The notes under the pieces are model-generated. The model worked only from the letters and a program-made list of their open reading frames with translations. It did no database searches and was not told where the DNA came from. Source: Tubiluchus corallicola (taxonomy: Eukaryota > Animalia > Priapulida). From it: a stretch of 64,000 bases of DNA. Of this stretch, positions 51,601 to 54,600 are shown one piece after another. A program made the position numbers and the translations under genes. The stretch covers positions 62,001-126,000 of the forward strand of contig JAQGDQ010000185.1 of NCBI GenBank assembly GCA_030141605.1, given 5' to 3'. How positions within the stretch are numbered: the first letter of the stretch is position 1; each line of letters opens with the position of its first letter.

Positions 51601-54600
51601 AATTTCTTGATTTTATGTAATTTTATAATTACTGTAGATTATTTTTTGCATTGTTAGTTACAGCCGACATTATTACTAATATTCAGTAAGCCGAATTAAA
51701 ATTGTACTTATACATGTATTGCAATTAAATTTGACAGTATTTGTTAATTATTTATAGTTTTATTTATTATTTAGCTGCCATCTGCCATATCTTTTGTCTG
51801 CTGTATACTAAACTATATGAAACTTTGAAAAATACTTATTAGTGATAGCATCCATTTCGGGTCACCATAGTTACTTCACAAAGTGATTACTATGTAACTA
51901 GTAAGTCTGATTAGAATTTGATTGATCTGCGCTTTAGGCGATTCAAAATTACTCAGAGTATCCACTGATTTCAGATTACTATAATATACATTTTATGTTG
52001 ACCCATGCATATAATTAAATTTAGCTTTAAAGAAGGAAATAAATAAAAATTAATTCTTGAAATTTGATTTTATTATTACTCAACCAAAAAGGAAGATGAG
52101 TCCCTTGAGCATTTTGGTCTGCCAATACATTACTTATTTAGGGTCAATTATTATTTAGGCTCTAATTCCTTAAAAAATGCTTATGGCAAATATTCAACTG
52201 TCATCTGCAATTGGGTATAAATTCAATTACGCGTCAGATCCATAAATGCAACAACAACTTATTTGTTGTCAAATTCTCAAAAAAATCAACCAAGTTGTCG
52301 TATAATGTTTTTCAGTCTTGGGGCATCACCATTTAACGTGACAGTGGCAATGGCGATCCAGGAACCACTGTAGTATTGGTTAATAGTCGCTCCGTTTAAT
52401 TTGTTTGCAGCCACATCTAATGCGTAAAGTTGTTCTACTTCTGGTAGATTTTCTGAAGGTACCATCAGAGCAGAAAACACTGGTCCATAAATGAATGCCT
52501 CATCCAGCCAGTATAAAAAGACTGACGTTACAAAGCAACCTGTCACGACATCCAAATTCAGTTCTGAGTTGCAAGAGGTGGATGCACATTGTTCATTTGC
52601 GTTTTGAAGTTTAGACGTCACGTGATCACCAATTCGATTTGAATAAGCAAGAGATCCGTAGCCCTGCGGTGCTTCGTCATCATACCAGAAATAATCTAGC
52701 GCGACCCTCCAAACGCCTCGAGATGCTTCTGAACCAAACTCCGCCGCAGGAGTTCCGCTTCCAGAGCAACCTGTTGACCCTCCAGAAGAGGGACTTTCTT
52801 CTGAGGGAACAAACCAGTTTGTGGTCAGTCCTGTAGTTTCACACTGGTTCGCCTCAAGAATAAGATAAATTGTATTGATAAGGTTATTCCAGTTAGTTTG
52901 GTAGGTCTGTCCTTCACTACTACTACCTGTTACCTCAGCTGAATAGTAAACCATAAAGTTTCGAAATGTCCTGTACGCTGCCGGAGCAAAGAGTGAAGGA
53001 TTGACACAGTCCCAACCACCCCAACAGGTGCCAAGTTTTAAGATGCGGTTGACTGATTGAGAATCAAGAACAGTGTTGAAGTCCATAAATGCCTTGCAAC
53101 TATAGTAAGCCCATTCTTTGACTGACTCCCACCATGTGTAGCTTGCTTTATTTGAAGCTGTTGCCTGAAGTAAGAGTATCATCCCTAGAATGGCATCTTC
53201 ATCACCATCAGGAGCAGCCCCTGTAGCCCATACTGACGTGAGCTCATCGTTAAACTTCCAATGTGGAAGACATGGGTTTCCTTCACAATAGTATCCTCCT
53301 CCTTGACAACTGCTACCTGAACTGGAAAGCTGGCACATCTTTTTCCACCCCATAAACATCTGATAGGCATATTCAACTGCACTTTGTTTATTTACATCAG
53401 TATCATCCATGCTTGCGGCTGTCATTGAAGCTATGAGAATACCGTATCCTTGTCCTTCTGACACCACTCCACCTGCTGCACCTCCTGAACTGTGCACAGC
53501 TCGTGTATCTGTGGCGACAAGTGATGTTAAAGCCAAAATAAACTCTTCTAGTCTAGTATAACTGTCACCTACAGTTTCAGTTGGCAAAAGGTAGTTCGTT
53601 GACGAAGAAGTTCCAGTTGAAAAAGTCGTGGCACTAGTACTAGAATCCATTCCTGATGTTCTTTCACTCGATGCTGTTGTAGCCGTTGTCGTAACTTCTT
53701 CAGTAACACCAGCTGTTGTACTTGTGATGTCGCTACTACAGCTGAATGTTGGAATGCTGTTCGACTCTCTGACATTGAAGCCCCACGAAGTGGTAACGTA
53801 GTTCGCCAATCTAACAGTTACAACCATTCCAGTTTGACCAGTTATTTCTGCATTCCAAATCTCAGATATGTATGAGTTTGAATGAATTAAGGTTAATTGC
53901 TCATATGAATTTGGAACCCATGTGTCAGGGGTTACATAGATTGTGCAACCATCTGTCCAGCAATCGTTGTCTATAGTACAACCAGCACGACACTTGTATG
54001 GCATGCAGACCACAACAACAAATATTACCAGGAGATCTTTCATCATTCTACACCTGAAACAAGGCAACTTATATATTCAGTAAATTTATTGCAAGTTATA
54101 ACTTTACAGAGTTGGAGCAAACAATGTGGACATAATATTTAATTAATTATTTCAATTTAGGTGTTCTTTGCCTTAGTGTAGGCTCACAGTTAACACGAAT
54201 TCAGTTCCGTATATCATATCCGTTAGACGCTATCATGACCGAAAAAATACAGTGTTATATCTTAATGACGTAAATGTAACAAATCTGTCCAACCCTTTAA
54301 ATTACAGCTTAGACATAATGCCAGTCTTCTGATAAGTTCTGGGAAAATGAGTTATATAAATCTTCAAATCGGGTAATTCGTTGAGTTTGTGGTATGAAAA
54401 CTATTGGTCGAAAGTGCCAAAAATGAAAAGTCACTATTAAGTACATATGTTTGAAGCACATAAAACGGTGGCTTAAGTGGGCAATTAAGGGGGAAATTTA
54501 AGTTTTAAAGAAGGGTGGAACCACTTACACAGCAGCTTCAAACTAAAATCATCAGCATTTTCTATTACTAATAACAATTAAATTTGTGATATCCACTATA

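Follow-up and report, generated by a model that had tools for sequence, protein, structure and literature searches.

How does an animal come to carry a gene of glycoside hydrolase family 8 (GH8), a family that is regarded as microbial and does not appear in the tables of one survey of glycoside hydrolases in animals (PMC6011409), and what might the encoded enzyme do? The question is raised by a 64,000-nt stretch of the priapulid Tubiluchus corallicola (assembly GCA_030141605.1, contig JAQGDQ010000185.1, positions 62,001 to 126,000 of the forward strand; hereafter the window, in whose numbering all coordinates are given), in which an open reading frame (ORF) of 586 codons occupies positions 52286–54046 of the reverse strand. 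An earlier note on this DNA, made from its letters alone, had taken the frame for a bacterial-type GH8 gene, a candidate for horizontal acquisition. That origin is not supported, since the nearest relatives come from animals and protists (43–86% identical, compared to 17–27% for the 12 bacterial GH8s sampled) and a scan of GTDB gave no close bacterial member. We consider it probable, at somewhat better than even confidence, that the gene encodes a secreted inverting endo-β-1,4-glucanase from an old eukaryotic branch of GH8 that is shared by priapulids and sponges and owes nothing to a recent bacterial gain. An old, overlooked animal lineage of GH8 is likely.

The GH8 protein and its place in the animal genome

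The frame translates with zero internal stops and no intron in its body, as first described. The window has 42 stop-to-stop ORFs of 100 aa or more, and no other of them exceeds 250 aa. Its product matches Pfam PF01270 at 42.3 bits (E 6.5e-11; cut-off 24), and the GH8 motifs that the earlier note had seen in order do follow the order of Clostridium thermocellum CelA (VSEGQGY, WKF, DGDED, WGG..NPS, GLTTNW, EASR.WR, YY), which is the sole sequence match in the PDB and also the best PDB profile match. For an AlphaFold2 model built from a 51-row alignment (mean predicted local distance difference test score, pLDDT, 86.7), Foldseek ranks GH8 structures first against the modelled barrel. In the VIA structure ranking, rows 1–7 are all GH8 (Z 28.7–37.2, with 24.7 for the best non-GH8 family), headed by CelA 1cem (Z 37.2, root-mean-square deviation 2.8 over 339 residues of the model). 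Profile, modelled fold and the aligned residues Glu197 and Asp280 thus confirm membership of GH8. Neither a second GH8 copy nor any Rfam match was found within the window.

The gene is physically integrated in the animal genome. It lies antisense within a 10.7-kb intron of a metazoan Cys-loop channel gene, between exons at 48295–48533 and 59221–59400 that are both bordered by GT–AG ends, which bears out the position originally given for it. Contamination or a chimeric assembly, the former already judged unlikely, was ruled out by contigs over both ORF ends, homologues on animal scaffolds and host-like composition. A contig of run X3 (second study) crosses the GH8 stop codon into an AT-rich flank and one of run X4 crosses the start codon, and homologues lie on an 813-kb scaffold of Priapulus caudatus (RefSeq) and a 10.3-Mb scaffold of Ephydatia muelleri. 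GC content at third codon positions is 0.35 in GH8 versus 0.43 in the host exons, and codon usage of the two is correlated (rho 0.40, p 0.002). No assembled piece among those listed reaches from GH8 to either channel exon. Gaps in depth across the gene in runs X1 and X2 were given no weight, as the tool filters its records. A third study contributes two short pieces at 90–95% identity to the GH8 region, perhaps from a related species or a paralogue.

Relatives among eukaryotes and bacteria

Relatives were collected through a first protein search (7994 candidates scored and 166 kept, best 120 of 166 listed), a profile search from a 12-row animal alignment (147 matches, best 120 listed) and an exhaustive search of 1.84 billion protein representatives (420 matches, best 150 listed). 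The top full-length matches are two Logan proteins (76% and 51% identical) and XP_014663182.1 of P. caudatus (49%), all with the N-terminal module of the T. corallicola protein. Over the catalytic domain, identity is 57–86% to priapulid-type proteins (n = 3), 51–55% to a sponge group (n = 20), 27–54% to other eukaryote-side rows (median 43, n = 153) and 17–27% to bacteria (n = 12). Ephydatia muelleri is the one named member of the sponge group, the other rows being placed by tree position only; two of the group, P0005 and P0006, sit on contigs that are both 1,093,144 nt long, which suggests tandem paralogues, and end in hydrophobic tails resembling glycosylphosphatidylinositol signals. Named protist relatives include Amoeba proteus, Difflugia compressa, Prymnesium, Emiliania, Symbiodinium, Durusdinium, Amoebophrya and Odontella. 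Among the named matches listed there is neither a fungus nor a choanoflagellate, and the profile search from the animal alignment gave no further named animal among its best 120 of 147.

A pattern scan of GTDB (185,579 genomes) gave 269 matches, of which three proved to be relatives, one at 49% and the other two at 25–26%; in one bacterial phylum GH8 was present in 8 of 151 genomes, all distant. A candidate gammaproteobacterial donor, L001/P0065, was rejected: on its contig (C17 of GTDB genome G001, a metagenome-assembled Gammaproteobacteria genome) the CBM2–GH8 gene is interrupted in an intron-like manner and is accompanied by an ANTH gene (E 1.4e-18) and by one that resembles TBCA but scores below cut-off, so the contig is a mis-binned eukaryote. 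Among metagenome loci, L031, L039 and L044 are eukaryote-like; the GH8s of L050 and L051, at 25%, are of the ordinary bacterial kind. A viral vector was also rejected, as none of 59 IMG/VR pattern matches were relatives.

Phylogeny of the eukaryotic branch

Out of 277 proteins and 24 loci, 189 domains entered the tree set: those of proteins that covered 300 or more of the 407 profile columns, together with 12 bacterial domains. FastTree on all 189 sets the bacteria apart from all others (support 100) and joins the priapulid-type and sponge-group rows (98). The same union receives 91/94 from IQ-TREE under LG+C20 with 40 hand-picked non-bacterial rows, and 94.6/94 under LG; the LG+C20 tree makes this animal group sister to a haptophyte-containing group (97/98) and does not resolve the four priapulid-type rows as a single group. 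A long stem parts the eukaryotic GH8 branch from all sampled bacteria. Support that is independent of any tree comes from a shared CxxxxC insertion: both cysteines are present in 24/24 animal-group rows, while Cys492 occurs in 7/153 other rows and 0/12 bacteria, and some haptophyte-group rows have a similar insertion with different spacing. Approximately unbiased (AU) tests on 26 rows, for which the constrained trees were built by fast searches, favour the animal group, and a placement of priapulids with amoebozoans or with the dinoflagellate–diatom group is rejected; uniting the animals with amoebozoans, of whose five rows two are named as such, gives p 0.12 (LG) and 0.006 (C20).

Active site, accessory module and predicted function

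Residues were counted over 177 non-bacterial rows (4 priapulid-type, 20 sponge-group and 153 other) and 12 bacterial rows. Beyond the acid Glu197 and Asp280, alignment equates Trp263, Trp342, Arg443 and Tyr559 with Trp132, Trp205, Arg281 and Tyr372 of CelA. Glu197 is conserved in 161/177 non-bacterial rows, Asp280 in 172/177 and Arg443 in 173/177, and the catalytic residues are invariant across the animal rows. Glu takes the position of the CelA base Asp278 in 166/177 eukaryote-side rows and in 3/12 bacterial rows, two of these poorly aligned. The Tyr215 equivalent is Tyr in 20/20 sponge-group rows, 144/153 other rows and one of the four priapulid-type proteins. Seven cysteines recur in 131 or more of the 153 other eukaryote-side rows, compared to 0–3 of the 12 bacteria.

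Among the CelA roles set out in part of PMC2953488, Glu95 is the acid and Asp278 the base, and Tyr215 together with Asp278 holds the attacking water; subfamily GH8a is defined by an Asp general base in the relevant part of PMC5407803. The worm protein departs from GH8a, with Glu440 instead of the Asp base and Leu352 instead of Tyr215. Subfamily GH8b has Asn at the Asp278 position and its base elsewhere, and the worm protein departs from it too, having Glu rather than Asn there. A protein with Glu440 could still work in a GH8a-like manner. This Glu stands at the predicted base of a eukaryotic branch that numbers more than 150 sequences in the set (amoebae, haptophytes, dinoflagellates and diatoms), and the branch would bear on base choice in GH8.

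The architecture is cellulase-like (likely signal peptide, β module, linker, GH8), and the layout of the signal peptide is alike in the homologues P0002–P0004. The likeliest function is that of a secreted β-1,4-glycanase, as the earlier note had predicted; its secretion-type N-terminus and this function stand as predictions, whereas a recent horizontal gain that conferred a new ability on this animal is not supported. A cellulose-type substrate is hinted at because relatives carry cellulose-directed modules, the fused modules being CBM1, CBM2, AA9/LPMO_10, an expansin-named domain and a cellulose-synthase-like GT2. In the working scheme that we propose, the signal peptide would export the protein, probably into the gut, where the N-terminal β module would anchor the enzyme to insoluble glucan by way of the Thr/Ser linker. 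The glucan chain would rest on Trp342, Trp263 and Tyr559, with Asp280 holding the −1 sugar, Glu197 protonating the glycosidic oxygen and Glu440 activating water; the longer Glu440 side chain may offset the lost Tyr215 equivalent. The role would be digestion of algal and detrital walls, and parts of PMC3530608 do describe algal remains and detritus in priapulid guts.

The N-terminal module is restricted to the four priapulid-type proteins, the sponge proteins being without it. It is all-β with terminal Cys, and Trp30, Trp64 and Tyr83 are invariant in 4/4. A β-sandwich with a terminal Cys pair and a surface Trp/Tyr triad is the pattern of carbohydrate-binding module family 2 (CBM2). The Atlas lead for the module is CBM_2 (0.87), and HHalign against three CBM2s gives P 0.0014 and a probability of 17%, with 0.6% for a reversed control. 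Neither PF00553 nor any other Pfam family matched up to E 1, whether with the module alone or with P0002–P0004. Fold searches with a single-sequence model (pLDDT 61) returned generic sandwiches only, with no CBM listed, and there is a weak match to a Flo11 profile (E 0.09).

Several algal and protist relatives (P0035, P0049, P0066, P0139, P0138 and P0201) combine GH8 with AA9/LPMO_10, CBM1, a second GH8 or Hint; these would be multi-enzyme cellulases, of which the literature search described below found no description. Another, P0153 (1065 aa), has a GH8 of the eukaryotic branch fused to a cellulose-synthase-like GT2, which recalls the bacterial BcsZ–BcsA pairing and the tunicate CesA–GH6 fusion.

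Identity to P0002 is 86% in the catalytic domain and 69% in the module, and the two linkers are not of equal length, a divergence pattern as expected under purifying selection. Runs X2 and X3 contain another allele of the gene, with Asp at residue 501 (52544–52545), where the window has Val and the family a DTGC motif, and with Leu at residue 535 (52443).

Weighing the readings

A number of results count against an old, shared animal endoglucanase. The named animals among the matches listed are Priapulus and Ephydatia only, and a single origin thus needs many losses; AU tests keep trees in which only the priapulids (p 0.33 LG, 0.39 C20) or only the sponges (p 0.30 LG, 0.14 C20) join haptophytes. 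With seven bacteria among 33 rows, none of seven root placements was rejected, including bacteria beside priapulids, and two quick mixture-model trees attach the bacterial branch on the animal side; for these reasons the bacterial root cannot be placed, and its attachment varies by run from near long branches to the animal side or among the haptophytes. As to function, GH8 also holds chitosanases, xylanases and licheninases, and chitosanase 7cju nearly equals CelA in the structure ranking (Z 36.1 versus 37.2). In 3/4 priapulid-type proteins Leu or Ile stands where CelA has Tyr215, and activity may be low because of this replacement. The assignment of the N-terminal module to CBM2 is weak, and the alleles differ within the ORF by three amino-acid-changing codons and two silent ones, too few to show purifying selection.

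The history that we prefer is a single early entry from an algal source: GH8 would have entered animals once, before the sponge–bilaterian split, most likely from a haptophyte-related alga, with later loss in most phyla; its intronic position would probably reflect a later relocation. In its fullest form, possible rather than expected, the ancestor of sponges and bilaterians had a GH8 cellulase derived from such an alga, now surviving only in demosponges and priapulids as an undescribed, disulfide-rich, Glu-base subfamily that is Tyr-less in priapulids. Somewhat unlikely, in our estimate, are two separate transfers, in which sponges and priapulids each took GH8 from related haptophyte-like food algae and unsampled donors explain their grouping. 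This would accommodate the very patchy animal spread (GH8 is in none of the 21 genomes in the tables of PMC6011409), the tolerance of the AU tests for either animal group alone joining haptophytes, the similar Cys insertion of other spacing in haptophyte-group proteins and the absence of the priapulid-only module from sponge proteins. It sits badly with the best trees, which unite both animal groups, and with the exact CxxxxC spacing in 24/24 animal rows, rare elsewhere. Vertical descent, previously argued for GH9 cellulases, would take the gene from an early eukaryote through heavy opisthokont loss with no transfer into animals; it agrees with the presence of the branch in Amoebozoa (Amoeba proteus, Difflugia), haptophytes, dinoflagellates and diatoms and with the long stem from all sampled bacteria. 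We regard it as improbable, given the lack of any fungal or choanoflagellate name among the named matches listed and the separation of animals from amoebozoans in the AU tests cited above, with their fast-search constrained trees.

A direct, lineage-specific bacterial transfer into the worm lineage is very improbable. It could draw on the intronless coding sequence (CDS), on the mostly bacterial membership of GH8 (Atlas clusters 97–100% bacterial) and on the unrejected root beside priapulids. The sampled bacterial sequences are, however, 17–27% identical, as compared to 43–55% for typical protist and sponge rows; the GTDB scan gave no close bacterial member, and the seven cysteines are a eukaryote-side trait. 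The earlier note had itself named orthologues across Metazoa as evidence against transfer, and this holds in part: homologues in Priapulus and sponges group with the protein, although the spread is very patchy. Its statement that the transposon ORFs are shattered holds for the one long interspersed nuclear element (LINE) that the check covered, a broken copy at 29057–32001 on the reverse strand whose endonuclease (31537–32001) and reverse transcriptase (30202–30717) lie in separate ORFs.

The function has a rival of its own, which we think rather unlikely: the priapulid protein may have drifted to a weak hydrolase, a transglycosylase, a glycan binder or a chitosan cutter in the moulted cuticle. 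The Leu/Ile for the water-holding Tyr in 3/4 priapulid-type rows speaks for drift, as does the change of Tyr to Phe that at the same site turns GH8 Rex into a glycosynthase (the mutant Rex structure 3a3v is among the Foldseek matches), and chitosanases are close structural matches. The protein nonetheless retains its acid, Asp280 and the cleft aromatics and has a carboxylate where the base is expected, relatives carry cellulose-directed modules, and GH48 CelS needs no help from the equivalent Tyr (part of PMC2953488). A predicted β-1,4-glucanase of the shared priapulid–sponge branch is the reading that we carry forward.

If the ancestral history is true, GH8 would be a fifth native animal cellulase family and would preserve molecular evidence that Precambrian animals digested the walls of algae. 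The sponge–priapulid branch would in any case enlarge the set of native animal cellulases by one family, and with it one can test whether the gene passed from algae to animals very early and was then lost on a massive scale, or was taken repeatedly from algae eaten as food. The case is less surprising than the earlier note supposed: no recent bacterial transfer is shown, and RefSeq has for a long time contained the Priapulus homologue, labelled 'uncharacterized protein'. In the portions of the literature that our search covered (subscription journals and bioRxiv supplements lay outside it), there was no account of an animal or eukaryotic GH8 of such kind, and nothing on priapulid cellulases or glycoside hydrolases or on GH8 in Ephydatia. 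The main text of PMC7385117 does not mention cellulase or glycoside hydrolases, the GH8 Pfam name is absent from 12 of the 16 supplementary files of PMC6040629, the whole word GH8 is absent from PMC11468063, and PMC12198962 has GH81 only.

Gene structure and host channel gene

Consensus signals suggest a GH8 gene of two exons. An intron in the 5′ untranslated region (UTR) is likely because a splice acceptor stands 7 nt before the ATG; predicted exon 1 is 142 nt and ATG-free, with a GTGAGT donor at 54938 and a predicted UTR intron of 885 nt. Of six TATA-like words in the 5166-nt upstream stretch, one has a properly spaced initiator. No RNA run was among those listed for the gene, and the single run guessed to be RNA matched a repeat only. 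The same channel intron contains short, very-high-copy interspersed repeats (56099–56190, 56663–56741 and 58935–59078; contig depth thousands or more).

Table 1. Coordinates of the GH8 gene, its parts and the host channel gene in the window
Feature	Position	Strand	Basis or remark
GH8 gene CDS	52286..54046	-	586 aa + stop; no intron within CDS
Likely signal peptide, residues 1-21	53984..54046	-	By eye: basic N-region, hydrophobic core, small residues before cut site
All-beta N-terminal module, residues 22-105, possibly CBM2-like	53732..53983	-	Seven strands, pLDDT 82-93
Thr/Ser-rich disordered linker, ~residues 106-159	53570..53731	-	53% S+T
(alpha/alpha)6 GH8 catalytic domain, residues 160-586	52289..53569	-	Pfam, Foldseek and VIA
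Glu197, aligned to CelA catalytic acid Glu95	53456..53458	-	Sequence alignment
Asp280, aligned to CelA Asp152	53207..53209	-	Sequence alignment
Leu352, replacing CelA Tyr215	52991..52993	-	Sequence alignment
Glu440, at position of CelA general base Asp278	52727..52729	-	Sequence alignment
Cys487-x4-Cys492 insertion, all priapulid-type and sponge-group proteins	52571..52588	-	Alignment counts
Splice acceptor (pyrimidine tract + CAG), 7 nt 5' of ATG	54054..54078	-	Consensus match only
Putative promoter and non-coding exon 1	54939..55114	-	TATAAATA at 55114, initiator-like site near 55080
Candidate polyadenylation signal AATAAA, ~210 nt past stop	52069..52074	-	Consensus match only
Host Cys-loop channel exon, pre-M1 to M2-M3 loop	48295..48533	+	Pfam PF02932; upstream flank of GH8-bearing intron
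Host Cys-loop channel M3 exon	59221..59400	+	Downstream flank of GH8-bearing intron
Host gene span found, GlyR/GluCl-like subunit	33268..63970	+	Exons mapped with P0137
Host exons, part 1	33268-33356, 36226-36296 or 36627-36691, 41159-41385, 42289-42371	+	Approximate
Host exons, part 2	43789-43923, 48295-48533, 59221-59400, 63791-63970	+	Approximate

A search with one channel exon (seven candidates) gave a single match, P0137, the P. caudatus 'glycine receptor alphaZ1-like' protein (72%), which maps collinearly on the window exons, with 94% identity over the M1–M2 exon. By this homology the host is likely a priapulid, though not P. caudatus itself. No exon matching P0137 residues 386–445 (M3–M4 loop) was found in 59401–63790; it may be skipped or too diverged. 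The host gene also has tandem versions of one short exon (71 and 65 nt), both of the same phase, with AG/GT ends and a match to P0137 residues 74–95. They look mutually exclusive because including both shifts the frame; insect GluCl exon 3 provides comparable mutually exclusive exons.

Comparison with known systems

The worm GH8 shares the (α/α)6 fold of CelA (a GH8a endoglucanase, 1cem/1kwf) in its model and matches CelA Glu95, Asp152, Trp132, Trp205, Arg281 and Tyr372, at ∼21% identity. It differs in having Glu at Asp278, Leu at Tyr215 and Ser at Tyr277, and, unlike CelA, has twelve catalytic-domain cysteines, an N-terminal β module with linker, and a eukaryotic gene. A Bacillus GH8 chitosanase (1v5c/7cju) and the Paenibacillus X4 β-1,3-1,4-glucanase (5xd0) have the same fold and top Foldseek ranks, but their Asp278 position is Asn (YNASR, YNSCR) where the worm has Glu, and identity is 16–18%. 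The animal cellulases of GH9, GH5, GH45 and GH7 are likewise secreted, animal-encoded β-glucanases, but of different families; some animal GH9s have an N-terminal CBM2 and linker. In the tables of PMC6011409, GH9 takes up 49 rows among 21 genomes and 770 rows among crustacean transcriptomes, whereas GH8 has no row in either.

Closest to the worm gene are two animal systems. P. caudatus LOC106805923 (XP_014663182.1), deposited as 'uncharacterized protein' and with no description found, has the same full-length architecture at 49% identity, with Ile at the Tyr215 equivalent. At ∼0.8 substitutions per site from the worm GH8 it is possibly a paralogue, and it is probably not nested in the channel gene, because it lies on a scaffold of 813,450 nt and the P. 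caudatus channel on another, of 665,840 nt. E. muelleri EMCRGX_G014456 (Em0005g1480a) and the rest of the sponge group, at 51–55% identity, lack the N-terminal module, keep Tyr215 and have Phe at Trp205, while sharing the CxxxxC insertion and, in 18/20 rows, Glu at the base position.

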